From Escherichia phage W70: a stretch of DNA of 64,000 nt. The stretch lies in sequence record OP778610, one strand, 5' to 3'. This document shows positions 5,457 through 64,000 of the stretch, piece after piece; the stretch's first letter is position 1, and the number at the start of each line of letters is the position of its first letter. The notes beneath the pieces are model-generated. The model had not been told where the DNA came from. It worked only from the letters and a program-made list of their open reading frames with translations, and ran no database searches. A program made the position numbers and the translations under genes.

Positions 5457-5459
5457 CAT

Positions 5460-6320: not shown

Positions 6321-6336
6321 TAAACAAAAAGAGATT

Positions 6337-6717: not shown

Positions 6718-6723
6718 TTATTA

Positions 6724-6782: not shown

Positions 6783-6804
6783 TTATATTCTAGGAGTAAG
6801 AGAA

Positions 6805-7158
6805 ATGATCGAACAAATCAAAACTACGACGGCTAATGTAACGGGAACGGTAGCACACTTTACTAGTGATGAATCGCGGGGCGTTCCCTATTGTGCTGTA
6901 CATGTAAACACTGAGGGTAACTACTGGTTTACGGTTTACGGATCATATTCATTTGGACGGCCAGGGCATCAAAAAATTCTGGATAAAGTACAACCAACGG
7001 GTAAAAATATTACCGCTGAGATGTTTAATAAATCACTTGCAAAGTTAAAAGCACTGAAAGATTTTGGCTTTAAAGATCTAGTTATCAAACGTGATGAAAA
7101 ATTCCGCTTCCGTAATGATCTGGCAAATCGCTACTATGAAATCTATGAAGCACTTTAA
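6805..7158 (+). CDS. hypothetical protein (117 aa)
   Basis: ORF with AGGAG RBS. Confidence 0.5.
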   Translation: MIEQIKTTTANVTGTVAHFTSDESRGVPYCAVHVNTEGNYWFTVYGSYSFGRPGHQKILDKVQPTGKNITAEMFNKSLAKLKALKDFGFKDLVIKRDEKFRFRNDLANRYYEIYEAL

Positions 7159-7164
7159 TAAAAA

Positions 7165-7186
7165 GGGCCGCAATAGCGGCCTTTTC
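7165..7186 (+). terminator. rho-independent terminator
   Basis: GGGCCGCAATAGCGGCC hairpin plus TTTTC. Confidence 0.55.
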
Positions 7187-7268
7187 TATTGACACCTGCT
7201 AACCATTCCTTTAATATGCATCTTGTAGGGCAAGCAATAACGCAAGCCCACAAATAGGACAAACTATT

Positions 7269-7466
7269 ATGACCATCGCTAATGAACTGATCGCCGTATT
7301 GAATGAAGCCAAATCTAATGAAATCGATGTACAGATCAAGGAATTACCCAATGGCCTGATAGGTTGCACTTGCACCTGTATCGGAAGTGACTACACAGAG
7401 GTAAGCTCTCTAGAATCTCTCATTCGTCACTTGAAATCAATAGTTGAAGATTGGAGAATCATCTAA
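7269..7466 (+). CDS. hypothetical protein (65 aa)
   Basis: ORF; last gene of plus-strand early block. Confidence 0.45.
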   Translation: MTIANELIAVLNEAKSNEIDVQIKELPNGLIGCTCTCIGSDYTEVSSLESLIRHLKSIVEDWRII

Positions 7467-7603
7467 TAAACCAGGGGCCGCAATAGTGGCCCTTGTCATG
7501 TCCATCGGTGCGACTCTCCCAACCCTATTAATCCCTTCCCCATTTGGATCATCATAACTTACCTCATCTAATCATTAATCTAATCCCCTTTGGAATCTCT
7601 CCC

Positions 7604-8011
7604 CCACAAATCTAAACTAATCTGATAGCTTACCATAACATAATCCACAAAGAAAGAACTATTTTGCCCACAAAGAAAGGCAGTTTTAAAGAGATACCAT
7701 TGCCAGAGTATGGAGGTGGCGCGACCGTAGGGAGCGACACTATAAAACGAGTATACCCCTCCTACCGCTATGCGGTCATCGGTGATAACCGATATCGTTA
7801 CACGCTATCTGTTCTCTTCGTTTCCTCGTTTTATAGTGTCTATATGTAGTAATCTTTTATTCTTTGTCAATACATTATCGAAGATAATATTGAATTATTT
7901 AATGCTTTGTTATTCATATAAAGTGAATAGCTAGTCAATAGGAAGGCCGTTAGTGTGACCACACAAAGAGGCTATGCACCACAAAGAGAGGCCGTACTTG
8001 CCCACAAAAGG
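7604..8011. repeat. array of six CCACAAAG(A/G)(A/G) direct repeats (DnaA-box-like)
   Basis: Copies near 7604, 7645, 7668, 7959, 7978, 8001; TAATCCACA at 7642. Confidence 0.6.
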
Positions 8012-8117
8012 AGCAAACAAGCAAGGCGGTACGCCAGTTTGCTAATGAGCGTAGCTCTTTTGCTAGACAAAACTCTCTTCTCTCTTCTTTCCCAAAATAA
8101 ATTTTTTCTTGCTTTTA

Positions 8118-8285
8118 TTGCCAGAGTATGGCGGGGCGCTCAGGCTATTGATGGCCCTGATGGAGTCGCTCCTGCACAGTTGGGATAGTTCATCGTTGGA
8201 TAGTCACAAGTTGGTATTATTCTTCCCACTAGTTGGAACAGGCCAGAACTGGCGGGGCTTGGAGTCGCTCCACTTGTTGGACGGA
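8118..8285. repeat. duplicated TTGCCAGAGTATGG segment plus five GTTGG-type repeats
   Basis: TTGCCAGAGTATGG at 7700 and 8118; GGAGTCGCTCC twice; GTTGG every 15-20 bp. Confidence 0.55.
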
Positions 8286-8631
8286 AGAAGGGCGCTTGCA
8301 GTGCGTATAAGTTGTATTATGTTAAATGCAGATCGAAATCGGTATTCTAAACCAGATTCAGAAGTCAATAGAAATCTTTAACTTTATTGTTGGGGCAGCA
8401 CAACATTTTTCTTGACAAGTCGAATCAAAGATGTATTGTGGATTGAAAATAAATGAAGATAATGCTTGACTTCTTGGATATTTTGAAAACATCGGACCCC
8501 CTCCCCCTCCCCCACGGTCGCCGTGCCTGGCAGCAGTATCGATACGCTAGGATATTTTAGCCCCTACTGGACAAGACACCCCCCCGTCAGTTATAATGGG
8601 GGTATACCTATAGAAAAGTAAGGAGGTTGTA

Positions 8632-28604: not shown

Positions 28605-29114
28605 TTAAGGGTGAATCCAGTAAAAAGGTTTTGTTAAACCAAGTTTACCTTTCGGGTCCCAAATGAAGTAGGCATACGCCGCACCATCTGTTTTCCCATC
28701 CTCAGTAAAAGAGGGTCGCTTGGATAGAGTAACCAAGTGATCAACAGGATATTCCTTCCAGAACTCCACACGTTTGGTACTCTCAAGGAAACCTAAACGA
28801 AGCAGCATTATCACCACATCAGCATCCTTGTGAGCCTTCTCTACAAACTCTTGAGCTAAATTATAAGGTGGGTTAGTTAACACACAATCTACCTTATTGT
28901 ATTTAGTTGCAAGATAATCAACACCTTCTTGAATCTCTCCCCAAGCTGAACCAATTGGCATTTCATTATAAAAACGTCCAGAGGCTCTGCAAGGTTCCAG
29001 ATAAGTCCAATCCTGACGGATTGGAACTAAATTCAAGAAAGCATCTACTGCCCATTTCGGAGTTTCATAGCGATCATTTTCACGGCGCTCTGCTTTAGGT
29101 TTCAATGCTGCCAC
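28605..29114 (-). CDS. putative phage Dam-type DNA N6-adenine methyltransferase (169 aa)
   Basis: NPPY catalytic motif (CVLTNPPYN); small size. Confidence 0.5.
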   Translation of the reverse strand: MAALKPKAERRENDRYETPKWAVDAFLNLVPIRQDWTYLEPCRASGRFYNEMPIGSAWGEIQEGVDYLATKYNKVDCVLTNPPYNLAQEFVEKAHKDADVVIMLLRLGFLESTKRVEFWKEYPVDHLVTLSKRPSFTEDGKTDGAAYAYFIWDPKGKLGLTKPFYWIHP

Positions 29115-51975: not shown

Positions 51976-52218
51976 TTACCAATTTGCGTAACCATCTTGT
52001 TCATCAGTGTCACGATCTACGATTCGTGGCTTTGGAGTTAGATCCATATGAGCAAGAGGCGTACCTTCTGGAATATCATTCAGTGAATATTCAACATTTA
52101 CCAGTTGACCTGTAAGCTCATCCATCTTTTGGGAGATATACGCTGCAACTGATCGACCTTCCAGAGTAGCCAGGTATTTCAGTTTTTCGTAAGTCGCGTC
52201 ATTAAAATTGATATTCAT
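51976..52218 (-). CDS. hypothetical protein (80 aa)
   Basis: ORF. Confidence 0.5.
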   Translation of the reverse strand: MNINFNDATYEKLKYLATLEGRSVAAYISQKMDELTGQLVNVEYSLNDIPEGTPLAHMDLTPKPRIVDRDTDEQDGYANW

Positions 52219-52280
52219 ATTTGTATCTCCTTTTTGTATTTTTCATTATAAGGGCCACACTAACGTGGCCCGATCGTTAC

Positions 52281-52502
52281 TTAAGCTACCAGTTCTAAAT
52301 CTTCAGCTTCTGCGTAGAAACCATCAACGATAACACCATCCTGACGTGTGAATGCAACAATAACATCTCCCCAATCTTCATCGACGAATTCAACAACGCC
52401 AATATCTCCAAATCGAACACCAGACAAACTGTAGCGGTCTTCATAATTACCTAACGGACTGAACTTAACTGTCTGACCTGGATTAACTTCTTTGATATTC
52501 AC
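52281..52502 (-). CDS. hypothetical protein (73 aa)
   Basis: ORF. Confidence 0.5.
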   Translation of the reverse strand: MNIKEVNPGQTVKFSPLGNYEDRYSLSGVRFGDIGVVEFVDEDWGDVIVAFTRQDGVIVDGFYAEAEDLELVA

Positions 52503-52544
52503 AGAATTTCTCCTTATACAACTTTAAGATATTAGCTTTCTATA

Positions 52545-52859
52545 TTATTCACCAAAAGCAACTTCACGACCCATCAGGATATCAAGCTCATTCAGTTGCT
52601 CAATCTGACTTTCAAGCGCTGCACGTTTCTTCTCTGCTGCATCTTGCTTATCGTATTCACCGTTGATCAGGGTACGCAGGAATTTAGGGTCGATGTTCAG
52701 GTCTTCTTTAGTGATCGCCAGTATGCTTTTCAGATCTTCAGCGGCATCTTTCTGACGACGAACAGCTTCAACACCTTCCTGAACAATGTTAGCCAGACGC
52801 TTACGAACTTCCAGGTCAGAAGGCAGGGTAGTGATCAGATCAGTTTTAGATTTAGCCAT
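52545..52859 (-). CDS. hypothetical protein (104 aa)
   Basis: Start at ATG after AGGAGAA RBS. Confidence 0.5.
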   Translation of the reverse strand: MAKSKTDLITTLPSDLEVRKRLANIVQEGVEAVRRQKDAAEDLKSILAITKEDLNIDPKFLRTLINGEYDKQDAAEKKRAALESQIEQLNELDILMGREVAFGE

Positions 52860-52875
52860 TTTTTTATTTCTCCTA

Positions 52876-53376
52876 TTATTTCCAATAAAATTTACCATTA
52901 AGATGAGGGTAGAGTTCAAGTTTCTTTTTCTCGTACCACTCCCTCGCTTCTTTTTCACTTAAGGTGTTTTTAGTATACACCCTAACTCCGCACTTTACAA
53001 CACTTCTCCAACAATTTTTCTCTGTACACCAAAAATAACCACGAGCTATTTTATTAGCACCGTTATCCAAATGATCAACCTCTCGGAGATTATCAGGATT
53101 GTTGTTACTTTTATCTCTGTCTATATGGTCTATTATACCACTAGGCCAATAGCCTCTGTCAAGAAAAAATACAACTCGGTGACAAAGATACGGCTTATTC
53201 AAAAATCTACCAGAGAAATACCCACTCTTTGTTACTGTGGTCATTGCTGGGTCACCAACCAAAGCCCTTGGCCCAGGTGATAACTTCCAACGAAGAAAAC
53301 TTATACTTGTGTCATCTACGAAAAGATAATCATTGATTGCATAAAGTTCCTTATCACTTGGGATGTATATTTTCAT
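52876..53376 (-). CDS. HNH homing endonuclease (HNH_3/AP2-type)
   Basis: SFLRWK; DHIDRDKSNNNPDNLREVDHLDN. Confidence 0.8.
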   Translation of the reverse strand: MKIYIPSDKELYAINDYLFVDDTSISFLRWKLSPGPRALVGDPAMTTVTKSGYFSGRFLNKPYLCHRVVFFLDRGYWPSGIIDHIDRDKSNNNPDNLREVDHLDNGANKIARGYFWCTEKNCWRSVVKCGVRVYTKNTLSEKEAREWYEKKKLELYPHLNGKFYWK

Positions 53377-53436
53377 AAAATAACACCTCTATCTTTGCTT
53401 CGATGGGGTAAATAATACCCCATTCAATATCTTCTG

Positions 53437-53781
53437 TCAAGCAGGATTTTTAAGTTCTTTAAAAACAACCTGAAAGACTGGAATTTCATCACTGATCTCT
53501 GACACAAGCAGAGCTACAGTTTCACAAGGTAAAGTACACGTTGCAAATGTTTCATAACCCGTATGGATCTTCAAGGTTAAATTACCTTTTAGTCCAATTT
53601 GGAACTGACGGACAAAAGGACTTAATGCACTGACATAGATCTCATGATAACCGTTTGGACGACGAGCATATTTTTTACCACTCGCAAGACCTGTAATAAC
53701 TAAACCATCAAAAGAAATTTTAGTCTGAGAACCATCATACACAGGTAAGCCAGGTTTTTCAACATCTTTTTCTTGATTCAT
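53437..53781 (-). CDS. hypothetical protein (114 aa)
   Basis: ORF. Confidence 0.5.
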   Translation of the reverse strand: MNQEKDVEKPGLPVYDGSQTKISFDGLVITGLASGKKYARRPNGYHEIYVSALSPFVRQFQIGLKGNLTLKIHTGYETFATCTLPCETVALLVSEISDEIPVFQVVFKELKNPA

Positions 53782-53789
53782 AATTCCCC

Positions 53790-53966
53790 CTATCGTACAA
53801 ACATTTTACCCTGGTCACAATAACCGTTTTTAATTCCTCGTGGAGCAGACAAACATTTTACTGCAATCTCTCCACACTTGCAAGGAGCATTTTCACGTTC
53901 TGCAATCTTTCGATTCTGATCGAAAACTTCACCACATTTTTCACATTTGTAAGAATACAACGGCAT
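53790..53966 (-). CDS. FmdB-like zinc-ribbon protein (58 aa)
   Basis: MPLYSYKCEKCGEVF..CKCGE; below ORF track cutoff. Confidence 0.45.
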   Translation of the reverse strand: MPLYSYKCEKCGEVFDQNRKIAERENAPCKCGEIAVKCLSAPRGIKNGYCDQGKMFVR

Positions 53967-53969
53967 TAA

Positions 53970-54707
53970 TTACATACCCTCCAGGTTTGCTTCAAAATAA
54001 GTGATTGGCTTCATGATCTTGCCATTCTTATCTTTAAATACTACACGATCCATACCATCACCACCTTTTACGATGCTTCCCTTTACACCTTGATAACGGT
54101 TACGGTTACGCAGTTCAATCTGTTCAGCTTCCAAACGCAACATGGCATCAATATCAAAATCAGCTTCTGCAAAAAAGTAATACGTCTTGTAGAAACATTC
54201 CGTAAATTCTTTCACGGTTGGGATCTTGGAATCATTTGAATCCAAAACCTCATTTAAAGCACGACGAGCATTAAAGTTGGAGTTCTGCATGATTGCAACA
54301 ACCGCCATAACGATCCCGTTTGTATTGTCACTCTCGATAAATTGATCAAGAGTTCGATAAAGCGAAGTCAGATTATACGTACCAACATTGTCAGCAGGAC
54401 AGATGTTTTCAGAACCACCTTTCAGGAAGTTGTAATATGATCCAACTACAAACAGGTCGCAAAGTGCATCTATGATTTCCTTACGATTCTTTTTAGTTAA
54501 ACCAAGATCATAAAGTTCATTGTACTCTTCCATAACAAGAGTTTTTTGGAATTTTGAAACATCTTCAGAGAAGTCATGAAAACCACGAGCAACAAAATTC
54601 CAATTTTTTACTCGCTCTGCTGCTTCCCGAAAGAAGCTATTGCCCTTAACATCAATCATCTCGGAAATAAAGGTTTTTTGATCAGTACTCAATTCTTTGT
54701 ATTTCAA
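53970..54707 (-). CDS. hypothetical protein (245 aa)
   Basis: ORF. Confidence 0.5.
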   Translation of the reverse strand: MKYKELSTDQKTFISEMIDVKGNSFFREAAERVKNWNFVARGFHDFSEDVSKFQKTLVMEEYNELYDLGLTKKNRKEIIDALCDLFVVGSYYNFLKGGSENICPADNVGTYNLTSLYRTLDQFIESDNTNGIVMAVVAIMQNSNFNARRALNEVLDSNDSKIPTVKEFTECFYKTYYFFAEADFDIDAMLRLEAEQIELRNRNRYQGVKGSIVKGGDGMDRVVFKDKNGKIMKPITYFEANLEGM

Positions 54708-54760
54708 TTTAATCTCCTTTCGTTTAACTTGGGGCCATTATACATGACCCCTTATCATTG

Positions 54761-55222
54761 TCAACAGTCTTTATAAGTTTCTAGTGCAACTTTACGTGCT
54801 TCATCCTTTTCAATCTCAAACTTAGATCGCTTGTCCTTTCTTGAAGCCTTGTTACGGCGTTTAATGATCCGACGGCAAGCATGATAAAGGCGTGTACCTT
54901 CGTAATCATTCATCCAGAACAGATCGCCATTTACAAAAAGGCTGTCGGAGAAAATACCACAAACCTTTTCAATGTAAGTAACCTTACCTGTGACCGTATC
55001 AACAATTGTATAATCAACATACCAAAGATCATCATTGTCTTCACAAGGGTCTTCATGACCTTCAGGAACAAAAACTCCAGAATGTATCTCAAACCGAGGA
55101 GATCCTTTACGAATCAACTTCAAGATCTTACCTGCTGGCTTACGAGTCATCAGCACAGGAGCGCCCAAAATTAAAGAAAGGTAAAGCGCAATCCCCACAA
55201 CAGCGATAATTAAAGCTTCCAC
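54761..55222 (-). CDS. hypothetical membrane-anchored protein (153 aa)
   Basis: N-terminal TM helix then Cys-containing domain. Confidence 0.5.
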   Translation of the reverse strand: MEALIIAVVGIALYLSLILGAPVLMTRKPAGKILKLIRKGSPRFEIHSGVFVPEGHEDPCEDNDDLWYVDYTIVDTVTGKVTYIEKVCGIFSDSLFVNGDLFWMNDYEGTRLYHACRRIIKRRNKASRKDKRSKFEIEKDEARKVALETYKDC

Positions 55223-55224
55223 TA

Positions 55225-56592
55225 TTAAACCTCCTCTGCAATTTTACGAAGAAGATCCAGAAGAGAGTTCGATGCTTCGATCACTTCTTCCAGGCTGTTG
55301 GCTACGCTCTTATCAAAGCGAAGTTCAACAAACTTATAATTTAAACGAGGCAAAAACAGAGATTTCAGATCTTTGTTCTCTGCATCAGTAATGTCATTAG
55401 CCTTGATCGTAATAATCTGCCCAATGAAATACTCACTCGGTTTTTTACGAAGAGCATCAGTAAGTCCAGACCCTGCACCAACTTCAAGAAGTCCATCACG
55501 AGTACGGCAGATCAGAGATCCAATAAGCCCAGGCTTCTTTTTGTGAGGCGTTGTCGCCACAACTTCAAGATCAACATCGAACTCATTTTTAAGTTTGATC
55601 CCTTTCTTAGTTTTGTTATCTCCCCAAGGCATATTCGCTTCTTTAAGAACCGTACCCTCTTTCTTCTGCAAACGCATTTCGATAAAGTGGTCAATAGCCT
55701 CTTTAAGACTGCCAATCTGACGACCACGGATCATCTGGAAATGAGAAGACTCATCAACATAGTTGACAATATTTTCAACCTGCTTACGACGGTCTTTATA
55801 TTTTTTCTTGGATTTACGTGCGATATACTCGTCCATAGAAACAACATCCCAAACAACCAAACGTACCAGATTAGGATCAATGTTTTCAGGATCTTGGTTA
55901 AGATATCCGTTACCGATCTCTCGTGGTTGAACCCCGTGCGGGTATGACAGGTCAATAACTAAACCTTCCCCGTGCATAACAAAAGGACCATCAGAATTGG
56001 CTTTTTCTTTCAGGTTTTGCTCAAGTGAAGGAATACACCGGAAATTAAGCTCTTTCCCTGATCGTGAACGATAAATGATCTGCTCAGGCCAAACCATAAT
56101 GTCTGCATAAAGTCCGTCCATCTTCTCGTCGGAGAAAGCACCCTCGTAGTTGAAATTACGAAGGAGATCCTCTTTGAAAAGGGTGTAGCTCTGGTAAGGA
56201 GGCTCTGTAACCAGATCCTTCCAAACCTTGTTGGTCAGAGTTGTCTGGATACCACACTCAAGATCGCGGTTAATGATCTTCAGCAGTGTTTCTGGTTCTT
56301 CGCACAGTTGAACAGCATTCGTGAGAACATCACGGGCTTCATGCCCAGTATACATACGACTTGCAACATCGTTGACGATAAGATCAATACTCTCTTGCAG
56401 ATTCCGATTCCCTTGGTGGAAAGTTGCAGGATCAACCTTAAAACTGCGAACAAAGAAGTTTAACTCTTTGCTGTATGCAACCCGAAATACTTCACGCAGG
56501 CCATCATTGTCCGCATGGCTACGTAAGATCGCTTCTTTTTCTTTTGTTGATCCGGTTGCTGCCAGTTGTTCGATAATCTTAGTTACGCTCAT
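55225..56592 (-). CDS. ATP-dependent DNA ligase (T4 gp30-like)
   Basis: KxDG motif EKMDGLYADI; N-terminus GSTKEKEAIL and RDLECG match recalled T4 ligase. Confidence 0.9.
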   Translation of the reverse strand: MSVTKIIEQLAATGSTKEKEAILRSHADNDGLREVFRVAYSKELNFFVRSFKVDPATFHQGNRNLQESIDLIVNDVASRMYTGHEARDVLTNAVQLCEEPETLLKIINRDLECGIQTTLTNKVWKDLVTEPPYQSYTLFKEDLLRNFNYEGAFSDEKMDGLYADIMVWPEQIIYRSRSGKELNFRCIPSLEQNLKEKANSDGPFVMHGEGLVIDLSYPHGVQPREIGNGYLNQDPENIDPNLVRLVVWDVVSMDEYIARKSKKKYKDRRKQVENIVNYVDESSHFQMIRGRQIGSLKEAIDHFIEMRLQKKEGTVLKEANMPWGDNKTKKGIKLKNEFDVDLEVVATTPHKKKPGLIGSLICRTRDGLLEVGAGSGLTDALRKKPSEYFIGQIITIKANDITDAENKDLKSLFLPRLNYKFVELRFDKSVANSLEEVIEASNSLLDLLRKIAEEV

Positions 56593-56601
56593 AGTTTCTC
56601 C

Positions 56602-56937
56602 TTAGTTTGCTTTGATTTCTAATGTGTATTTTGCCAGACCAAGATTAATCTTGTCAAGATCTTCTATTGATTTTTTAACCTCTTCAAAGACCTCTTTGGT
56701 TACATTCTTGCCATTAACAATATACTGTATCTCAGGGCTTCCCTCCTCCACAACTTCGAAATCATAGTCCTTAAAAAATACGATCACTCCGGCTGCACCA
56801 TTCTCGTCACTACCAGATAGCATGATTCCCTCTTCATTAGCAACTTCAAAAATTCGATCTTTGAAATCATATACCTTACCAACAACAAACTTAAGAGAGT
56901 TAAATTTAGTCTTGTAGCCTTTAAATCGGTATTTCAT
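56602..56937 (-). CDS. hypothetical protein (111 aa)
   Basis: ORF. Confidence 0.5.
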   Translation of the reverse strand: MKYRFKGYKTKFNSLKFVVGKVYDFKDRIFEVANEEGIMLSGSDENGAAGVIVFFKDYDFEVVEEGSPEIQYIVNGKNVTKEVFEEVKKSIEDLDKINLGLAKYTLEIKAN

Positions 56938-57155
56938 TTAGTCTCCTTTAGTTTTCCACAAAGAGCACCTTCAACATAATCAGGATTCTCTTTAAAGAAC
57001 TGATCATTCTTTTTAATGAAACCACCAATGTTCCGACGGAGAAATGCGAATGCTTTGATCCCTCGATACCAAGCATCAAAGCTTGATTTCTTCAGTTCCC
57101 CACCCATATAGACATTGGTGAAATAAAACGGATGAGTCTTCTTACTTATCCTCAT
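56934..57155 (-). CDS. hypothetical protein (73 aa)
   Basis: ORF. Confidence 0.45.
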   Translation of the reverse strand: MRISKKTHPFYFTNVYMGGELKKSSFDAWYRGIKAFAFLRRNIGGFIKKNDQFFKENPDYVEGALCGKLKETK

Positions 57156-57164
57156 TGTTTCCTC

Positions 57165-57518
57165 CTAAACAGAGAAAAGAACCTCTTCTTTCTCCACATG
57201 AAACTCAAAACCGTCCACAAGATTAGATTCTCGATCCTTACTTTCATGATAACTACACGTCCAACGGTAAACACCAGGACCAGAATCTGAATCAGGTGGA
57301 AGACCAATATACTCCGCTTCAGGACCCTCGTCAAGCAATGCAGGATGAATATTTGGTGCTTTAAGGACGGTTACCCGTCCACTGTAATCAACAGCCACAA
57401 TCCAAACACTTCCATTCGGAGATTCGAAAACTTCCTCTTTTGGATCTTCTTTGATAAGAGCTTTGTTTGGCTTTTTCAAGCAGGTTGCCAATCCAGAATC
57501 AATCCACTGGTTTGACAT
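57165..57518 (-). CDS. hypothetical protein
   Basis: Start uncertain; longest form overlaps the upstream gene. Confidence 0.35.
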   Translation of the reverse strand: MSNQWIDSGLATCLKKPNKALIKEDPKEEVFESPNGSVWIVAVDYSGRVTVLKAPNIHPALLDEGPEAEYIGLPPDSDSGPGVYRWTCSYHESKDRESNLVDGFEFHVEKEEVLFSV

Positions 57519-57537
57519 TCCTGCATTAAGCCATGTT

Positions 57538-57906
57538 TCAGACAGACTTTTTCTTTTTGACGGCACGTTTCTTCTCCTTAACCTGTTCAACAGGTTTTCT
57601 CTTAGGCTTAGGTTTTGGTTTGTACGGTTCCTCAGGCTTCTGGTAAAGCCCAAGAACAACTCTTTCTATTGCACTCATAGGTACGGTTGTCATCTTCCGT
57701 CTCTTAGCGTCAGGAAGCTGCAATTCCCAAATACCCAACCAATAAGACAGATCGTCGATACGATCCTGTACCCAAGGGTCCGGCTTCGGAATAGTTAGTA
57801 GTCTACTTAACTCTTCATTACATGTCAACAAACATTCTTCAAGTTTTTCAACTGGCGTATTAAAAACAAAGGCAGTCTTGTCAAAAGGCTTCTTCTCTGT
57901 CGTCAT
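57538..57906 (-). CDS. hypothetical protein with Lys/Pro-rich C-terminus (122 aa)
   Basis: KPKPKPKRKP tract. Confidence 0.5.
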   Translation of the reverse strand: MTTEKKPFDKTAFVFNTPVEKLEECLLTCNEELSRLLTIPKPDPWVQDRIDDLSYWLGIWELQLPDAKRRKMTTVPMSAIERVVLGLYQKPEEPYKPKPKPKRKPVEQVKEKKRAVKKKKSV

Positions 57907-57910
57907 AGCA

Positions 57911-58102
57911 TCACTCTTCAGTATCGTAAGTGTTATTCTTGATTGCTTCCAGTAATACGTCCAAAGGAACAGTGAATGACTCTACAGTGTCCATCCCACC
58001 AACCTTATAGCCGTGAACAATCTCACCACCTTCACGATTGCATACCAGAAGAGAATACCCACCAGCAATGTTCTCACTGATCTCGATATCAACAACTTTC
58101 AT
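57911..58102 (-). CDS. hypothetical protein (63 aa)
   Basis: ORF. Confidence 0.45.
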   Translation of the reverse strand: MKVVDIEISENIAGGYSLLVCNREGGEIVHGYKVGGMDTVESFTVPLDVLLEAIKNNTYDTEE

Positions 58103-58331
58103 CTTTAGTCTCCTTCTTGTTCTCTACCCAACCATAAGCCTTCATACACCCCTGGTAATTAGGCCACCTTTTATTTACAACGTTCTCAAGCCACTCAAGA
58201 TCCGTACTTACATGAATGTATTCACTATACAGTTCATCAAGAGTGTCAACAAGGTCAGGGCGATCTTTCAAATACTCTCGAACATCACTGATCCTTTTTC
58301 CAAGCTTACAGTTATCACATTCACAAGTCAT
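58089..58331 (-). CDS. hypothetical protein (80 aa)
   Basis: ORF. Confidence 0.45.
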   Translation of the reverse strand: MTCECDNCKLGKRISDVREYLKDRPDLVDTLDELYSEYIHVSTDLEWLENVVNKRWPNYQGCMKAYGWVENKKETKDESC

Positions 58332-58627
58332 CCCATATGCTCCAAAACAAGAAGGTGCTTATAACGATGATTATGTGCATAGACCAATAGGGCCATATCC
58401 ATCCAAGCAACCTCGTCAGCGTCACCAATCACAGAGAGGCATAAGTTGTCACAGTTCTGTCTTACTTTCGCCACAGTGAGTTCTACACCCCTTCCTTCTA
58501 GGATTTCTTCAAGATATTCAAACTGGTCATTCAGTTCCATAGACCACAAGTAGAATCGTGGCTTCTCCTGTGCACGAAAGATGTTTTCCAACTGCTCGCT
58601 TAATTCATCACTAAAGATCAATTTCAT
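58328..58627 (-). CDS. hypothetical protein (99 aa)
   Basis: ORF. Confidence 0.5.
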   Translation of the reverse strand: MKLIFSDELSEQLENIFRAQEKPRFYLWSMELNDQFEYLEEILEGRGVELTVAKVRQNCDNLCLSVIGDADEVAWMDMALLVYAHNHRYKHLLVLEHMG

Positions 58628-58767
58628 GATTTACTTTTCCTCTCTCCAATACCTTTGTTAAGATACTTAACCAAACTGATACCAAATGCTATCATGATCA
58701 GAAACCACACTGTACCAAACTCAACAATGTTCAATCCAAACGCAACAACATCGTTACACTCTTTCAT
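58624..58767 (-). CDS. hypothetical small membrane protein (47 aa)
   Basis: GGAGA RBS; one TM helix; ATGA overlap downstream; below ORF track cutoff. Confidence 0.4.
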   Translation of the reverse strand: MKECNDVVAFGLNIVEFGTVWFLIMIAFGISLVKYLNKGIGERKSKS

Positions 58768-59048
58768 CAGATCATCTCCAAAGTTATTAGTACATTATCC
58801 AAATCTTCAGCCACAAGCTGTAAGTCAGGTTTCATACTATCTTCCACACGATGATAAATCAAGCCTTTTTCCACATAAGGATTCATTACCCCGTAATAGT
58901 TCCCCAAAATGGTGTACCAGTCACATTCGTAAACAGTCACAACACATACTTTCAGTCCAGCTTTTGCTGAATGCCAAGCTTCTCTCATAGCTTGAAGGTG
59001 ACTTAGTTCATTTTCTGATAACTTTTTACATTTATTATTCAAAATCAT
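58767..59048 (-). CDS. hypothetical protein (93 aa), first gene of minus-strand block
   Basis: ORF next to divergent control region. Confidence 0.5.
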   Translation of the reverse strand: MILNNKCKKLSENELSHLQAMREAWHSAKAGLKVCVVTVYECDWYTILGNYYGVMNPYVEKGLIYHRVEDSMKPDLQLVAEDLDNVLITLEMI

Positions 59049-59139
59049 TATAAAAATAACCTGTTGTTTGTTAAAGTAAGAGCACTATACCTATGTAAAA
59101 ACTCCATGTCAAGACTTTAAATTTAAAAAATTTAGTATA

Positions 59140-59375
59140 AAATCTATAAAAGATCCTTTAAGATCTATAGATCATACATAAAAAGATCTTATAAAAGATC
59201 TTGTTTTTATTGTTTTTAATAATAATTATGAATGTAATGAATAATTATTATATAATTTATGAATGTAATGAATAAATTATAAAGATAAAGGGTTTGGCGA
59301 GAGGCTTCGAGCCAGGGAAATCTAATATAGTATTGTATGCCTAAACGGGCATAAAGGGTTTGACATGTTGGGATA
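59140..59375. repeat. AT-rich control region with GATC cluster and direct repeats
   Basis: Five GATC in about 50 bp (59152-59200); 19-bp TTATGAATGTAATGAATAA twice; ATAAAGGGTTTG twice. Confidence 0.6.
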
Positions 59376-59415
59376 GTCATGTAAGATAGCGAATGTAAGG
59401 TTAAGAGGAGGGACT

Positions 59416-59802
59416 ATGTTTGAGATAAACACCTCTGTTGGGAAGAAAACTTTTGAAGACGATGCATTCGCCATGCTTCCTCTTCGTTGGGTTACTGAAA
59501 TGTCCGGCGAGGATTTAAAGAGGATGATACTTTTGAGGTGGAGATTTTCATTCTTTGCGGAGTTTGCTTCTCGACAGGGCGAATCAGTGGAAACGTGTTT
59601 CTATGAATCACAGGTGGCATTGTGTGAGTTGTTTCAAATGTCACCGACCAGTCAAGCTAAGGTAAGTGCATTCCTTAAGAAGATGGAGACTGGTGGTTAC
59701 ATCAGGATTTACAGAGATAAGGTGATAATCAACGGGAAGTCGAAACCACGTCATTACATTGTGGTTAACGACCCAATACTTAAAGAGAAGTACGGATATT
59801 GA
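59416..59802 (+). CDS. hypothetical protein (128 aa)
   Basis: ORF with AGAGGAGGG RBS. Confidence 0.55.
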   Translation: MFEINTSVGKKTFEDDAFAMLPLRWVTEMSGEDLKRMILLRWRFSFFAEFASRQGESVETCFYESQVALCELFQMSPTSQAKVSAFLKKMETGGYIRIYRDKVIINGKSKPRHYIVVNDPILKEKYGY

Positions 59803-59813
59803 CGGAGGTAATC

Positions 59814-60044
59814 GTGAATCAGGTTTCAGAATGCCGTTTAAACGCAATAGGAAGCTCTCTCACGAAAGAAACAGATGAAGTTATGTCTTTTCTTGACTGG
59901 AGTGCAATGAACGCTCAAATCGTTTCTGAGAGAGTTTATGCCGATATGGCATCTCAGTTTATGATACCCTGTAAGGAGATTCAGGTTGAATCTAAGCTTG
60001 AAGAAGAAATATCTGGACTTCTTCAATCGTTTGAGTTACATTGA
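59814..60044 (+). CDS. hypothetical protein (76 aa)
   Basis: GTG start after GGAGG RBS. Confidence 0.45.
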   Translation: MNQVSECRLNAIGSSLTKETDEVMSFLDWSAMNAQIVSERVYADMASQFMIPCKEIQVESKLEEEISGLLQSFELH

Positions 60045-60102
60045 CTATCATTGGTTATGCCAGTAAAATGGAGGTATACTTTTATTTAACTGGTTAACTA
60101 AT

Positions 60103-60351
60103 ATGAAAAACTTTAAACTTGCACTGGAATACGGTGCTGCTGGATACGTAACGGAAGAGTATATCGATATCTTTGACAGCTATGACGAAGCCTTTGATGA
60201 AGGTAACGACATTGCCTTTGAGAGTACAGGCTTTTCTCTGGAGTGCTGGAAAAAGATTGACTTTGGAAAAGGAAATCGAATATACTTCTTCTACCCCAAC
60301 GAGGGTGATTTAACTTCTCGTTATAAAATGACTTTTATGGAGGCAAAATGA
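60103..60351 (+). CDS. hypothetical acidic protein (82 aa)
   Basis: ORF. Confidence 0.4.
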   Translation: MKNFKLALEYGAAGYVTEEYIDIFDSYDEAFDEGNDIAFESTGFSLECWKKIDFGKGNRIYFFYPNEGDLTSRYKMTFMEAK

Positions 60352-60572
60352 AATTTAGCATTACACTGAACTTTACCGTAGACAAGTCCAATGAAACTCT
60401 TGCCAAAGAGATGAAAGAAGCTGCTGAACGTCAAGGTATTACAGTTGAAGAAATCTACAAGACATTCCCACAGCAATTCCTTCAGGGTTTTGTAGAACAG
60501 TTCCCTAATGACGATTCTGAGTTCCCTGGGTTAACTACAGAAGTTACTGTTTCGGAGATCACCAATGACTAA
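60348..60572 (+). CDS. hypothetical protein (74 aa), tandem paralogue
   Basis: Similar to 60565..60783 (EEI[YF] motif). Confidence 0.45.
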   Translation: MKFSITLNFTVDKSNETLAKEMKEAAERQGITVEEIYKTFPQQFLQGFVEQFPNDDSEFPGLTTEVTVSEITND

Positions 60573-60783
60573 ACAGGTTGTAGAACTCAAGGTCACTTAT
60601 GAAATTGACTACACTAACGAAGATATGGCAGAGATGTTAAAGGCTAAGATGGAAAAATCTGGCTTGAGCATCGAAGAAATTTTCGAAGCTGTAGAAAAAG
60701 AACTTATCGAAGGAACTCTCGAATCTATGGAGTTAGAGTGCAAAACTCTACCTGGTTTCAGTGTCGGCGTTGTTAAACTGTAA
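60565..60783 (+). CDS. hypothetical protein (72 aa), tandem paralogue
   Basis: Similar to 60348..60572. Confidence 0.45.
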   Translation: MTKQVVELKVTYEIDYTNEDMAEMLKAKMEKSGLSIEEIFEAVEKELIEGTLESMELECKTLPGFSVGVVKL

Positions 60784-60891
60784 TAGGGGTAAGATACATG
60801 ATTGGATACGGAGAAGGTTGATGAAAGATGAATTTGATGGTTTCGTAGGATTCGGGGAGGGAATCATTAACGAGGAGAATTGGGATGTGTG

Positions 60892-61062
60892 ATGAAAGAC
60901 CAGACCTTTGAATCTCTAAGTTTCGATGACCCTCGTAATCATGAAAAACAAAAAGGTTACATGTGTCAGTGTTTTGTTTGTGGTTACAAATTTTTAGGGC
61001 CTAAGCGATCAGTGATGTGCAATCTTTGCCTTATTGGTAAAAAGACTGTTGACAATAGCTGA
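60892..61062 (+). CDS. hypothetical Cys-rich small protein
   Basis: CxCxxC..CxxC pattern; start uncertain. Confidence 0.35.
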   Translation: MKDQTFESLSFDDPRNHEKQKGYMCQCFVCGYKFLGPKRSVMCNLCLIGKKTVDNS

Positions 61063-61315
61063 TTAAATATGTAAGATTATCTTGTCGCCTGAGAGATTAG
61101 TCATCTTAATGGCTGGGTGGATAAATATAAGTTGGAACCATTATACCACCGACGCGATTTACGCTTTTGGTTGACTGTGACTAAATGGGATGCCCAGTCC
61201 ATCCTTCTTTAAAACGGGGAGCCGTCGAAGATTGTCTGATTAGTGATTTACGGATCATTATAGTTTTAATACCACGACAATCTTTTACGGTGTACCCCTT
61301 GTAAGAGAATTTAGC

Positions 61316-61394
61316 GCGGGTGTATCTCAACGGTCTTCTAAACCGTCGTTAATCGAGTAATTGGAGTATGAAGGTTCGAGTCCTTCCTCCCGCG
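61316..61394 (+). ncRNA. tRNA-like element (noncanonical; possible pseudo-tRNA or stable RNA)
   Basis: Canonical T-arm GAAGG-TTCGAGT-CCTTC and 7-bp acceptor-like helix with one mismatch; anticodon-like hairpin with loop CTTCTAA (TCT); no clean D-arm. Confidence 0.4.
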
Positions 61395-61413
61395 CTAAGT
61401 TCTTTTGAATATA

Positions 61414-61485
61414 GGCCCTGTAGCTGGACGGTTCAAGCAAGCGACTCATAATCGCCAGACGGTGGTTCGATTCCACCCAGGGCCA
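61414..61485 (+). tRNA. tRNA with anticodon CAT (Met or Ile2)
   Basis: Acceptor GGCCCTG/CAGGGCC, T-arm GGTGG-TTCGATT-CCACC, loop CTCATAA, CCA encoded. Confidence 0.8.
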
Positions 61486-61621
61486 CCATACAAAGTCGGG
61501 TAGCTCCCGATAAGTCGTCGGACTGATGTTCCCTGACTATGAGTTCTCTCAACGATAACGACGTAGATCACAGCAGAAACGGCGCACCCTATTATATTTC
61601 TTAATACATTTCAATAAGTTC

Positions 61622-61650
61622 TTGACATAATCCTATTATACTGCTAATAT
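61622..61650 (+). promoter_or_regulatory. sigma70-like promoter (TTGACA-17-TAATAT)
   Basis: Hexamers upstream of ORF 61678. Confidence 0.5.
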
Positions 61651-61677
61651 AGATATATCGACTGAATTGAGGTGTTT

Positions 61678-62052
61678 ATGGCTAAAGCTGAAATCGTTAC
61701 TCGAAAACGCGGTCGGCCTACTACAGAGGAAAGCATTGCAATCAATACTGAGAGAGCAATTCTTCATGCTCGTTCCGAGTTTGCAAGACTTACTCCTCAA
61801 GCAATTAAAACTCTGGAAGGTCTACTGACTTCCGGTACAGAGAAAGTTAAAGAAACTACTGCGAAGTATATTCTTGAGCAAGCTGAAAAGGCAAACAATC
61901 TGTACACAATGGAAGATAATGAAGAGGATCTGGCAGGAGGAACTACTTCTGCAAATTCAGAAACTCATCAAGGCCCTTCTGATGCATTTAAAGATGCTAT
62001 CCCATTAACTACTCAGATTCGTGAGTATAAAATGGCAGAAGGTGAAGATTAA
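61678..62052 (+). CDS. hypothetical protein with AT-hook-like KRGRP motif
   Basis: ATG after GAGGTG RBS; RKRGRPTT. Confidence 0.5.
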   Translation: MAKAEIVTRKRGRPTTEESIAINTERAILHARSEFARLTPQAIKTLEGLLTSGTEKVKETTAKYILEQAEKANNLYTMEDNEEDLAGGTTSANSETHQGPSDAFKDAIPLTTQIREYKMAEGED

Positions 62053-62075
62053 GGCTCGCAAGGGCCTTTATTAAG
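62052..62075 (+). terminator. terminator-like hairpin with GCAA tetraloop
   Basis: AGGCTC-GCAA-GGGCCT followed by T-rich tract. Confidence 0.45.
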
Positions 62076-62297
62076 AAGTTTTCTTTAAGGTAGTTCTTAC
62101 TTTAGCAGAGTAAATCTTCGGCAAGTGGCGGTAACCACTTTACCGATACCTCATAGTCAGTGCTGCAAACACTGGCTACCTTAAAGAGAATTTAACTCGT
62201 CGAATAAGGAAGATGCTGATCTCAAAGTGAGGTCACTTACCGCAAGGGGTGTGCATAGACTCCCGCTTCCGAATAGACTATGTGGCGAGATGTATTT

Positions 62298-62376
62298 GGG
62301 GACGTGGCAGAGCGGTCGAATGCGCCTGACTGTAAATCAGGTATCCCACACGGTGGTTCGAATCCATCCGGCCCCA
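62298..62376 (+). tRNA. tRNA-Tyr (anticodon GTA)
   Basis: AC arm CCTGA-CTGTAAA-TCAGG; T-arm GGTGG-TTCGAAT-CCATC; acceptor with one A-G mismatch; CCA encoded. Confidence 0.7.
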
Positions 62377-62382
62377 CCAAAT

Positions 62383-62455
62383 TTTCCGTTAGGCTTACAG
62401 GATAAGATTCCCACAACATATCGTTGTGATACTGGTTCGAATCCAGTACGGAAAC
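62383..62455 (+). ncRNA. tRNA-like element (noncanonical anticodon arm)
   Basis: Perfect acceptor TTTCCGT/ACGGAAA and T-arm ACTGG-TTCGAAT-CCAGT; internal hairpin CACAAC-ATATC-GTTGTG. Confidence 0.45.
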
Positions 62456-62582
62456 CAAATTAAGCCGTGATGTGATGTAATCACTGACCTCTTTGAAGGA
62501 TCATGGCATTTTATACAAAAACCTGAATAATTTAGGTTTTAATTCCTGGGGTTCGTAGCCCTATTACTAAGAGGACTTAACT

Positions 62583-62792
62583 ATGTTTACTATTAAAATT
62601 ATTGATATCGATGGAAATGAGACTGGTGTTTCAACAAGGCACTATAGATGGTACTCAAAAATGAATATTTTTGATCTGGAGGGTGGTGAATCTGTTTCTG
62701 TACCACCAAAAAGTCGTGCTTATGTAATGAATGACAAAGGAATAACCATCGGTAGATACACAAATACAGCGGATCAACGCGTTCTTAATTAA
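62583..62792 (+). CDS. hypothetical protein (69 aa) inside tRNA cluster
   Basis: ORF with AAGAGGA RBS. Confidence 0.5.
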   Translation: MFTIKIIDIDGNETGVSTRHYRWYSKMNIFDLEGGESVSVPPKSRAYVMNDKGITIGRYTNTADQRVLN

Positions 62793-62793
62793 A

Positions 62794-62865
<72 letters not shown>

Positions 62866-62966
62866 CCAAACCTCTATCCATCTGACGCGTTTATGGGGTT
62901 GACCTGATCACTCTTCTCCTAATCTCGTGTGAAGACACCATGATTGTTGGGATGGATAAACTTCTT

Positions 62967-63038
62967 TTGGGGATTAGCCAAGCGGTAAGGCATCGGATTT
63001 TGATTCCGACATTCACTGGTTCGATTCCAGTATCCCCA
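62967..63038 (+). tRNA. tRNA-Gln (anticodon TTG)
   Basis: Acceptor TGGGGAT/ATCCCCA (U1-A72); AC arm TCGGA-TTTTGAT-TCCGA; T-arm ACTGG-TTCGATT-CCAGT. Confidence 0.9.
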
Positions 63039-63046
63039 GCCAATTA

Positions 63047-63121
<75 letters not shown>

Positions 63122-63174
63122 CCAATTTACCCTCATATAATAACAATAATATAATCTCCTCTCCTTCGCCTCAG

Positions 63175-63200
63175 CCTCCCTCATTTGGGAGGCTTTTTTA
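63175..63200 (+). terminator. rho-independent terminator
   Basis: CCTCCC-TCATTT-GGGAGG hairpin plus TTTTTT. Confidence 0.7.
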
Positions 63201-63241
63201 TTTGTGCTTTCGGTGATAAAATATCCAAAAGGAGGATTTAT

Positions 63242-63601
63242 ATGTTACCCGCTAAAAAATATTTCATTTACGCAATGATCGGCGTTGCGTTATTTACGTC
63301 TGGAAAACTGTATCTCGGACACGTCGAGTCTGTGGGATATGACAAAGGCTACGATGCTGCAAACACGGCTTGGATAAAGAAAGCTACTGAGTACAAAGGA
63401 AAGCTTGACTCTACATTGGAAGAGAATAAGAGGTTGAATGAAGAACTTTCTTATGCAAATGCAAAACGGATCATCGCTGAGGAAAAATTACGTGATGAAG
63501 TAGAGGCAATGAGAATCGACTATGCAAAATCTAAAAAGGGACAAGAAATATTTATGGATGATGAGATAGTTGATATCTATAACAAATCACTGGGGGAATA
63601 A
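63242..63601 (+). CDS. putative i-spanin (Rz-like)
   Basis: AAAGGAGGA RBS; N-terminal TM helix then coiled-coil-like charged domain. Confidence 0.55.
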   Translation: MLPAKKYFIYAMIGVALFTSGKLYLGHVESVGYDKGYDAANTAWIKKATEYKGKLDSTLEENKRLNEELSYANAKRIIAEEKLRDEVEAMRIDYAKSKKGQEIFMDDEIVDIYNKSLGE

Positions 63602-63900
63602 TGAAGAAGATTATCGCCGGAATTATCCTTTGTTTTGGTCTTGTTGGTTGTCAGAGTAAAGAAATTTGTGGGCCTACTGAAGAAGTTAAGATAGAAAAGC
63701 TGATCGAAAAGCCGGATCTTGAACTTATGAAGAAAGAAGGTCCTAAGCTGGTTATGGAAAAACGCTCTGCAAAGACAACTGTTGCTGACGTTCTTAGTCA
63801 TAACAATCTTCGTGCTGCAAGAATAGAAAGGCGTGCTGAAGGATTACAGACCTACGTTTGTAATATTTTTAAAGAAAATCCACCAGAGTTCTGCAAATAA
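63601..63900 (+). CDS. putative o-spanin lipoprotein (Rz1-like)
   Basis: Signal peptide with lipobox LVGC; ATGA overlap with upstream gene. Confidence 0.55.
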   Translation: MKKIIAGIILCFGLVGCQSKEICGPTEEVKIEKLIEKPDLELMKKEGPKLVMEKRSAKTTVADVLSHNNLRAARIERRAEGLQTYVCNIFKENPPEFCK

Positions 63901-64000
63901 TGTTGACAAGGTCAGTGCTTTTATGCATTGGCCTTTATTTTTTATCCTTTTTATGGTAATATACCTTTTATCGGTTCAAGTCAAGAACTAAAGGAGAATT

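Follow-up and report, generated by a model that had tools for sequence, protein, structure and literature searches.

A conserved AT-rich region with clustered GATC sites and palindrome-framed repeats between divergent early promoters of an rV5-like coliphage, a candidate replication origin

Introduction

At the oriR origin of phage P1, an AT-rich core with five closely set GATC repeats adjoins 19-bp iterons, with the initiator gene directly downstream; the system has two DnaA boxes, five iterons and a RepA protein of 286 aa. In RepA_N plasmids, the iterons are found inside the initiator gene itself. Replication can also be primed by transcription, as at the primary origin of T7 and at oriF and oriG of T4, where a promoter is paired with an AT-rich unwinding element, and T7-like replisomes start at a promoter beside an AT-rich region. 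The GATC core of P1 oriR has been described as a target of SeqA (Brendler et al., 1995, as cited in PMC2912659), which in vivo prefers GATC sites spaced roughly 10 or 20 bp apart and pairs lying within less than about 31-50 bp of each other (PMC2912659). The iterons of RepA_N systems are semi-palindromic direct repeats (PMC7145576), and the sigma70-like early promoters of Certrevirus phages follow the consensus AAAA(N3-4)TGTTGAC(N17-19)TATAAT (Buttimer et al., 2020, PMC7344957).

The locus considered here is a 367-bp gap (59049-59415) between two outward-facing early promoters of an rV5-like coliphage, and lies in a 64,000-nucleotide stretch of DNA from Escherichia phage W70 (OP778610), referred to below as the window. 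The element is real, composite in structure and conserved among phages. As the replication origin of this phage, with an initiator gene attached, it is the best candidate, a reading that is held with somewhat less than even confidence.

Several described systems resemble the gap in part. The closest likeness in both protein and style of repeat is to the RepA_N initiators (RepA of pSK41/pTZ2162 and RepA of the V. cholerae PLE), but the phage protein has neither a PF06970 match (none at E<=1, with 16 members of the family tested) nor a C-terminal domain, its bearer is a lytic myovirus of enterobacteria, and the repeats stand upstream of the gene, unlike those of RepA_N plasmids. With P1 oriR, taken as origin core, incC iterons and repA, the gap shares an AT-rich core with five GATC sites, iteron-like repeats and an initiator-like gene downstream, whereas it lacks a DnaA box, has two palindrome-framed units and encodes a 128-aa protein that is not similar in sequence to P1 RepA. 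Dense GATC sites at helical-turn spacing in AT-rich DNA near promoters are also a feature of the unwinding element of E. coli oriC and of the dnaA promoter (PMC2912659). Unlike oriC, the gap is devoid of 9-mer DnaA boxes: between 59000 and 59450 there is no perfect box (TTWTNCACA) and there are two sites with one mismatch, neither of them in the AT-rich core, while the best matches to the oriC-type 13-mer GATCTnTTnTTTT carry two mismatches. As at the T7 and T4 origins, a promoter adjoins a very AT-rich stretch, in a phage family with a T7-like polymerase and primase-helicase; however, the two strong promoters of the gap point away from the AT-rich DNA, into which only the weak P_x reads, and the T7 and T4 origins have neither iterons nor an adjacent winged-helix gene. 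Membership of the oriC or P1 class fails on the DnaA boxes and 13-mers, and membership of the RepA_N family fails on the sequence match and the missing C-terminal domain, such that the comparisons with oriC, P1 and RepA_N are likenesses and not assignments.

Genomic position and base composition

The closest database match of the window is Escherichia phage A73 (OP778609.1, Vequintavirinae). Positions 52000-64000 correspond to A73 130009-142009 with one mismatch, at 58890, while positions 1-12000 are only 93-98% identical to A73, with indels; because the first 12 kb diverge in this way, the window is taken to come from a sibling isolate. The initial annotation had placed the region between the first minus-strand gene and the first plus-strand gene, which the positions of the open reading frames (58767-59048 and 59416-59802) bear out, and the gap is bounded precisely by the ATG codons of these two genes. 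The minus-strand gene, the first of the leftward early unit, encodes a 93-aa protein (phrog_12865, E=5e-46; A73_164) and holds the same position in Certrevirus phages. Leftward genes, a DNA ligase gene among them, extend over about 50 kb and end at the gap. The rightward block starts there and passes a tRNA cluster and a spanin-like pair before reaching the terminase gene with which the A73 record begins.

The description of the region as 80% AT was a fair one, as GC content is 27% for the whole gap, 17.6% in a 250-bp window starting at 59031 and 14% in a 172-bp AT-rich core (59114-59285) that lies between both promoters and is a candidate DNA-unwinding region. A 200-bp window from 59092 has 16.5% GC, the second lowest value in the 64 kb being 28.5%, and the extreme persists in a composite in which positions 1-78009 of the A73 record were joined to the window. 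The core thus corresponds to the adjacent AT-rich unwinding region that is characteristic of iteron-type theta origins, and it is the most AT-rich place in the window. From left to right, it consists of an UP-like A/T tract with the weak P_x, the GATC cluster, a tandem of two TTGTTTTTA copies and two abutting repeat units. No meaningful second copy of the region was found in the window.

Early promoters

Both ends of the gap carry sigma70-type promoters. The leftward promoter P_L (59084-59112, minus strand) has TTGACA (59112-59107), a 17-nt spacer and TATAGT (59089-59084), agreeing with the consensus at 11 of 12 positions, and the TGTCAA of its -35 box is invariant in 10 aligned phages. The rightward promoter P_R (59360-59387, plus strand) has TTGACA, a 16-nt spacer and TAAGAT (10 of 12 positions), and the TGAC core of its -35 box is kept in nearly all of the 10 phages, with SSBI34 departing from it. 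Sites of the form TTGAC-N17-19-TAWRNT that are co-oriented with genes number 25 in the window, where 3 are expected by chance, and P_L and P_R belong to this set. The two therefore constitute a divergent sigma70 pair in which spacing (16-18 bp), co-orientation with genes and conservation are all found. They also fit the published Certrevirus consensus and its placement in early regions (PMC7344957); a term search of the same paper found no mention of a GATC cluster, repeat units or an origin.

A further possible promoter, P_x (59116-59143, plus strand), stands back-to-back with P_L and reads rightward into the core. It is weak here, with TTTAAA, a 16-nt spacer and TAAAAT (9 of 12 positions), and its equivalents are strong in KB57 (TTGACA-N17-GATAAT) and PVP-SE1 (TTGACA-N17-CATACT).

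GATC cluster and DNA methyltransferase

A report of five GATC sites in about 50 bp proved accurate, with five in 49 bp (59152-59200) that start at 59152, 59162, 59170, 59185 and 59197, three of them as AGATCT. The sites had been placed inside AAAGATCT repeats, which is true of two (exact copies at 59182 and 59194) and does not apply to the remaining three, whose contexts are AAAGATCC, TAAGATCT and TAGATCA. Start-to-start spacings are 10, 8, 15 and 12 bp, or about one helical turn, and this arrangement agrees with SeqA-type spacing, in which at least two GATC lie less than about 31-50 bp apart and ideally about 10 or 20 bp apart. DNA of the Certrevirus phage CB7 has been reported as likely Dam-methylated (PMC7344957).

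Whether the density of GATC is elevated depends on the measure applied. The tetramer is in excess over the window as a whole (396 observed, 253 expected), and by spacing alone the cluster is marginal, given that uniform placement of the sites yields five GATC within 45 bp somewhere in 64 kb in 6% of trials. Against local composition, on the other hand, about 0.7-0.8 GATC are expected in the gap and the probability of at least five is 0.0004, and across the homologous gaps of eight lineages there are 33 GATC, whereas the 23 alternative orderings of G, A, T and C average about 7. The second most compact group of five sites takes up 166 bp in the window, or 110 bp in the composite with A73. What makes the cluster convincing is local composition together with its conservation across eight phage lineages and its persistence while the flanks change.

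Comparison of relatives illustrates this persistence. The homologous gap of every lineage has 2-6 GATC, and the tetramer itself is kept while its flanks vary (AAAGATCC, TAAGATCT, TAGATCA, CATGATCA). Among close relatives, copy number shifts by whole 10-bp units, as in UPEC06 and LTH01, which have gained a sixth GATC by insertion of one such unit. Certreviruses have two GATC within the P_L spacer and one in the -10 box of P_x; in A73 the two spacer sites are absent and the upstream cluster is larger, so that the total per gap stays at 5-6. The GATC cluster and the repeats described below are conserved and under selection and are not a chance product of an AT-rich gap.

The phage also encodes a 169-aa protein with an NPPY motif (28605-29114, minus strand), previously described as a putative Dam-like methyltransferase. 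Its open reading frame matches PHROG 799 'DNA methyltransferase' (E=4e-63), has no Pfam match and reaches TIGR01712 only at E=0.036, far below the cut-off. The product is likely an N6-adenine DNA methyltransferase, but the matches give no indication of GATC specificity. A link between this enzyme and the GATC cluster is only conjectural.

Repeat units and hairpins

Directly 3' of the last GATC pair, itself capable of forming a weak hairpin, lies the tandem of two TTGTTTTTA copies (59201-59218, plus strand), a T-run whose counterpart in related gaps is TTGTTTTNTTGTTTT. The motif TTGTTTTNTTGTTTTT is kept in Certrevirus, PVP-SE1, KB57 and Hena1. To the right of the T-run, the perfect 19-bp direct repeat TTATGAATGTAATGAATAA that had been noted earlier is indeed present in two exact copies (59226-59244 and 59257-59275), for which shuffled sequences give 0.06 matches even when three mismatches are allowed. 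The term direct repeat nevertheless understates the structure, which is better described as two palindrome-framed units of which the 19-mers are only the centres. In unit 1 (59219-59251), perfect inverted arms of 11 bp (ATAATAATTAT / ATAATTATTAT) enclose the core GAATGTAATGA (59230-59240), and in unit 2 (59251-59281), which abuts it, perfect inverted arms of 10 bp (TATAATTTAT / ATAAATTATA) enclose the identical asymmetric 11-nt core (59261-59271).

Perfect inverted arms of 9-12 bp were found in 22 of 22 units from 11 phages. When 16 units were aligned, every cell of the inner nine pairs proved to be paired, and five arm positions have changed on both sides, including from A-T to C-G and to G-C; in slid registers, pairing falls to 36-56%. 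The covariation score of the arms is 0.447 compared with 0.121 for shuffled alignments, a value reached in 0 of 500 shuffles. The cell counts are inflated by the paralogy of units 1 and 2, but at least four lineage-specific compensatory changes are visible, in the A73 group, in UViG_3300012996 and in both units of Kashira. It follows that both the asymmetric centre and either dyad symmetry or the potential to form a hairpin are kept by selection. At the one variable base of the core, or loop, both A73 units have T and both units of the four closest relatives have A. Iteron-type theta origins have multiple direct repeats to which the initiator binds; here there are only two repeats, which are exact, conserved and evolving in concert. 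As two abutting units, they are also semi-palindromic direct repeats of the kind described for RepA_N iterons (PMC7145576).

A GC-richer block (59285-59362, plus strand) completes the right part of the gap. It includes two copies of ATAAAGGGTTTG, which had been correctly reported (59285-59296 and 59351-59362, the second overlapping the TTGACA at 59360-59365) and which are weak evidence by themselves, in that 12 shuffles out of 100 yield two or more matches when one mismatch is permitted. The block also has the mini-hairpin GGCTTCGAGCC (59303-59313), the conserved word TAGTATTGT (59328-59336) and a hairpin TATGCC-TAAACG-GGCATA (59336-59353) directly upstream of the P_R -35 box. Other genera have one to three hairpins at the equivalent place with different stems, such as TATTCC..GGGAATA in PVP-SE1 and KB57 and TGTCCCC..GGGGACA in Av-05. 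A ToxI-like repeat, as known from phiTE, is absent from the gap locus.

The winged-helix protein

The first rightward gene (59416-59802, plus strand) encodes a 128-aa winged-helix protein (phrog_8453) that is a candidate iteron-binding initiator or autoregulator. Its AlphaFold2 model is confident (pLDDT 89.5) and consists of an N-terminal beta-hairpin, a long helix, the winged helix and a C-terminal helix. In structural comparison, the protein comes closest to the N-domains of RepA_N initiators (RepA of a staphylococcal plasmid and RepA of the V. cholerae PLE), by a small margin, and Foldseek against the PDB returned generic winged-helix matches only. The modelled fold has the DnaD-like extended winged-helix form of a RepA_N N-domain, and all 128 aa fall within it, which corresponds to the size of such an N-domain; the host-specific C-terminal domain of RepA_N proteins is absent. 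As for an initiator gene beside the repeats, the adjacent winged-helix gene is a candidate whose top structural matches are initiators, by fold only and with a small margin. The resemblance to RepA_N seen in the model is real but narrow, and is a likeness and not an assignment.

Sequence comparisons are less specific. No Pfam domain passes, and profile searches of Pfam, NCBIfam and the PDB produced only generic, sub-threshold winged-helix matches, which group the protein with regulators of the Crp, TrmB, MarR and ArsR types. No sequence-level link to RepA_N, DnaD or another family was found. Two homology searches and the PHROGs define a closed family of 39 members, all from phages of this kind and with no remote sequence relatives, in which the recognition helix and wing are conserved across genera. 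The homologue in PcCB7V is annotated as a transcriptional regulator.

Conservation across phages

The order of the module is P_L, GATC cluster, T-run, two repeat units, one or more hairpins, P_R and winged-helix gene. It is common to A73-like phages, Certrevirus, SSBI34, Seunavirus, Mydovirus, Avunavirus, Henunavirus and Serratia phage Kashira, and is preserved ahead of the winged-helix gene in diverged sequences too, with GATC in A/T-rich DNA throughout. The non-coding left half of the gap is about 71% identical to Certrevirus phages, which is on par with the neighbouring gene; the phages aligned infect Cronobacter, Pectobacterium, Klebsiella and Enterobacter. Gene and element co-occur in at least six genera: homologues of the 128-aa protein are encoded by Certrevirus, Seunavirus (PVP-SE1), Mydovirus (KB57, Ro1), Avunavirus (Av-05), Henunavirus (Hena1) and Kashira, and in all of them the gene is the first of the rightward unit at a divergent junction. 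rV5 itself has neither the 128-aa gene nor a gap with GATC sites and iterons, and its counterpart of the 93-aa gene does not flank a junction; the module is therefore not universal in the subfamily.

Phages of the Seunavirus and Mydovirus types have different repeats (ATAAGTTAGT twice), yet the recognition helix of the protein is conserved. The only non-trivial words common to nearly all gaps are AAGATCT and GAATAAT, and with either type of repeat GAATAA(T/A)T is found on the 3' side of the units. This word might point to the target of the winged-helix protein, and is a lead, not a result.

Alternative explanations

Nearly as likely as an origin is a region that controls transcription and has no origin function, an alternative that is likewise held tentatively and in which the winged-helix protein would act early as a regulator, or as an autoregulator, through binding to the repeat units and hairpins, the GATC cluster would make the early promoters sensitive to Dam and SeqA and so couple early shut-off to replication, and the AT-rich DNA would be an UP element, bent DNA or a target of nucleoid proteins. 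In its favour, both P_L and P_R make good sigma70 promoters, and the UP-like part of the Certrevirus consensus is matched by the AT tract beside P_L. In PVP-SE1, KB57, Ro1 and Hena1, repeated hairpin units occupy positions of about -40 to -85 relative to P_R, with a third copy overlapping the Shine-Dalgarno sequence, a layout like that of operators; the GATC sites of Certrevirus phages within the P_L spacer and the P_x -10 box, the regulator-type matches of the protein and the PcCB7V annotation point the same way. In A73, however, the iteron units precede the P_R start by about 95-145 bp and are separated from the P_L start by about 150-200 bp, distances that are long for classical activation or repression. 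Moreover, the perfect and compensated complementarity of the arms exceeds what operators usually show, the AT content is extreme in comparison with the other approximately 25 promoters of the window, and the best structural matches of the protein are initiators, not regulators. The two readings are not exclusive, as the Rep proteins of plasmids do both jobs.

The remaining alternatives are far less probable. The GATC cluster and T-run could belong to a short rightward transcript from P_x, whether small RNA, leader or primer RNA, in which the AAGAUCUU palindromes form hairpins and the last hairpin and the U-run act as an intrinsic terminator. Strong back-to-back rightward promoters in KB57 and PVP-SE1 are consistent with this, as are the small hairpin that precedes the T-run in all lineages and the fold of the KB57 sequence into three hairpins, with a GATC hairpin followed by the U-run (z=-4.3, 0 of 200 shuffles as good). 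The idea is nonetheless improbable, because P_x is weak here, the fold in the window falls short of significance (z=-1.8), the terminator stem, with two G-C pairs, has a low stability of about -5 to -7 kcal/mol and a constraint on pairing alone would give covarying stems, whereas several genera keep GATC; no Rfam family matches, and a scan of 58500-64000 at E<=1 gave only tRNAs and, in the region, a chance match to Histone3 (E=0.23). The pac site of P1 uses clustered GATC-containing hexamers, and a packaging site regulated by adenine methylation could be imagined at the gap, with the terminase gene, the one at the start of the record, some 4.6 kb downstream. These phages package by a headful mechanism (PMC7344957). 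A pac site is very improbable, since neither a TGATCA nor a TGATCG hexamer is present, the site is neither in nor beside a terminase gene, and read depth and BAL-31 analysis of CB7 and phiTE indicate full circular permutation with no preferred end (PMC7344957). Least probable of all is that slippage in an AT-rich spacer produced the repeats neutrally, leaving them with no function of their own. Short repeats form readily in such DNA, a 10-bp unit has been inserted or lost between close relatives, and the uniform-placement scan statistic for the GATC cluster is just 0.06, but neutrality is at odds with the conservation of module order across genera, the compensatory changes in the iteron arms, the enrichment of GATC over words of the same composition in eight lineages, and the 98% identity of the gap among five close relatives whose wider 2.5-kb neighbourhood is about 96% identical.

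A model for origin function

The earlier proposal of an origin or of Dam- or SeqA-sensitive regulation names what are still the two best candidate readings, given that the cluster and repeats are conserved and the spacings are SeqA-like. The origin option has been strengthened by the AT outlier, by hairpin-type iterons with compensatory changes and by the RepA_N/DnaD-like fold of the neighbouring protein. An origin together with its initiator is preferred on account of the initiator-like gene, identical repeat units, AT-extreme DNA, SeqA-spaced GATC and divergent promoters. More specifically, the gap may be an iteron-type origin, activated by transcription and equipped with a Dam/SeqA-sensitive GATC cluster, a proposal that is plausible but stays below an even chance.

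As the promoters are close to consensus, conserved and co-oriented with genes, host sigma70 RNA polymerase would be expected to fire P_L and P_R, and perhaps P_x, right after injection. Divergent transcription might then underwind the 250 bp between the promoters, with the result that the 14%-GC core melts or the AT-armed units are extruded as hairpins. The first product of P_R, the 128-aa protein with its RepA_N/DnaD-like fold, could bind the two iteron units, and would probably also bind the hairpin beside its own -35 box, leading to autoregulation as in plasmid Rep proteins. A T7-like primase-helicase and polymerase may load on the opened GATC/T-run region, and a short transcript might serve as primer, as at the T7 and T4 origins. 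A T7-like DNA polymerase and a primase/helicase are named in the annotation of rV5, which fits initiation at a promoter beside an AT-rich stretch. By the spacing rules of SeqA, the five GATC, which would be fully methylated on incoming DNA, could become a high-affinity SeqA target when hemimethylated after the first round of replication, and SeqA binding might provide a means of timing or limiting re-initiation and the activity of the early promoters.

Several observations weigh against the model: the iteron units number only two, DnaA boxes and close oriC-type 13-mers are missing, the protein has the size of an N-domain, lacks a recruiting C-terminal domain and shows no sequence-level link to an initiator family, the repeats of Seunavirus- and Mydovirus-type phages differ despite the conserved recognition helix, and rV5 does without the module. 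No convincing IHF or Fis consensus sites were seen. The minimum of the cumulative GC skew falls at the cluster, but GC skew was rejected as evidence of an origin, because its slopes follow the four transcription blocks with no separable replication component and are equal in blocks that agree and disagree with replication from the gap.

A bolder version of the proposal would make of the gap and the 128-aa protein a minimal origin module, complete in itself, of lytic enterobacterial myoviruses, with an initiator of RepA_N type reduced to its N-domain. It would further comprise two iterons capable of forming cruciforms, with compensated AT stems and an 11-nt centre, and a GATC-bearing unwinding element timed by Dam and SeqA and fired by divergent transcription. 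Possible as this is, it is less likely than not. Were it true, a lytic coliphage lineage would for the first time be credited with a RepA_N-type initiator, and these genera of Vequintavirinae would have their first mapped origin; no description of an origin for rV5-like phages was found in a limited search of the literature. An insertion-free intergenic region of 2 kb has been reported for a Vequintavirus, Bas54, in a recent transposon study. It was rejected as a relative of the gap, as it maps in rV5 to a convergent junction and is unrelated in composition and repeats.

If the gap is an origin, it would give phage engineers a defined cis element, along with a small trans-acting factor, for instance for replicons and conditional mutants, would extend RepA_N-like initiators to the lytic phages of enterobacteria, and would provide a simple system for Dam/SeqA timing and divergent transcription at a phage origin. 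If it is a promoter control region only, it would still be a conserved master switch for two early transcription units. Phages of the rV5-like group are widely isolated and have been considered for therapy, and a scan of IMG/VR with a profile of the 128-aa protein extends its known range by one or two lineages beyond the isolates.

Hairpin Layout of the Gap and Its Counterparts

The two iteron units (59219-59251 and 59251-59281) in the gap between the 93-aa gene and the 128-aa winged-helix gene each carry perfect inverted arms around an identical core, and the alignment of close relatives (A4) revealed a sole variable base within this core (59235 and 59266), at which the two units agree within each phage: W70 has T in both, and A7_1, A5-4, UPEC06, and LTH01 have A. 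The iteron copies thus undergo concerted evolution. Because the small CDSs annotated inside the gap in UPEC06 and F1M1E (window 59216-59380, minus strand; comparison loci L021 760-924 and L006 1776-1874 and 1988-2152) span the iteron hairpins and are broken by indels in relatives, their annotation as genes is probably an error. Across the start codon of the 93-aa gene lies another promoter-like sequence close to the consensus, TTAACA-N16-TATAAT (59074-59047, minus strand; 11 of 12 consensus positions), which probably arose by chance in AT-rich DNA.

In other genera, the hairpin stems vary while the layout near the rightward promoter of the gap, P_R, remains constant. PVP-SE1, KB57, Ro1, and Hena1 each contain three copies of TATTCC-N5-GGGAATAA(T/A)TAG (L012 1370-1497, L013 1370-1497, L015 1330-1455, and L014 1360-1428), two of which lie immediately upstream of the P_R -35 element, and the third coincides in part with the winged-helix gene's Shine-Dalgarno sequence. 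At the equivalent position, Av-05 has two copies of TGTCCCC-N5-GGGGACA. KB57 (L013 1245-1352) and PVP-SE1 (L012 1240-1352) also possess a strong rightward promoter, back-to-back with the leftward promoter P_L and followed by a well-folding stretch of ~100 nt (z=-4.3 in KB57), the 3' end of which is a GATC hairpin and a U-run. This stretch may specify a small RNA or a transcript that serves as a primer.

Other Junctions and Genomic Context

In rV5, the counterpart of the region reported to be transposon-free in the Vequintavirus phage Bas54 is a convergent junction with 2.6 kb of gene-free DNA (L034 16014-18619; rV5 104014-106617). The AT content of this rV5 stretch is not extreme, its own repeats include ACATGCCTGACTGTTTAC-like copies and two exactly matching 20-bp sequences, and it is unrelated to the W70 gap element. 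The second divergent junction of the genome, of 120 bp (sibling phage A73 record 63344-63463; L024 13344-13463), contains a single GATC; it has no comparable extreme of AT content, none of the repeats, and no winged-helix gene. GATC sites are over-represented in the window as a whole (1-64000), with 396 observed versus 253 +/- 14 expected from dinucleotide-preserving shuffles; thus, Dam sites are not avoided by the phage.

Window positions 52000-64000 differ from A73 at one base (58890). The small early genes at 1-12000 share just 93-98% identity with A73, with indels and rearranged pieces, which makes the window distinct from A73; this early-gene block is a mosaic part of the genome. Six tRNA genes (61316-63121) and, after them, a spanin-like pair encoding a membrane protein and a lipoprotein (63185-63900) lie immediately upstream of the terminase gene, which is located at the beginning of the A73 record.
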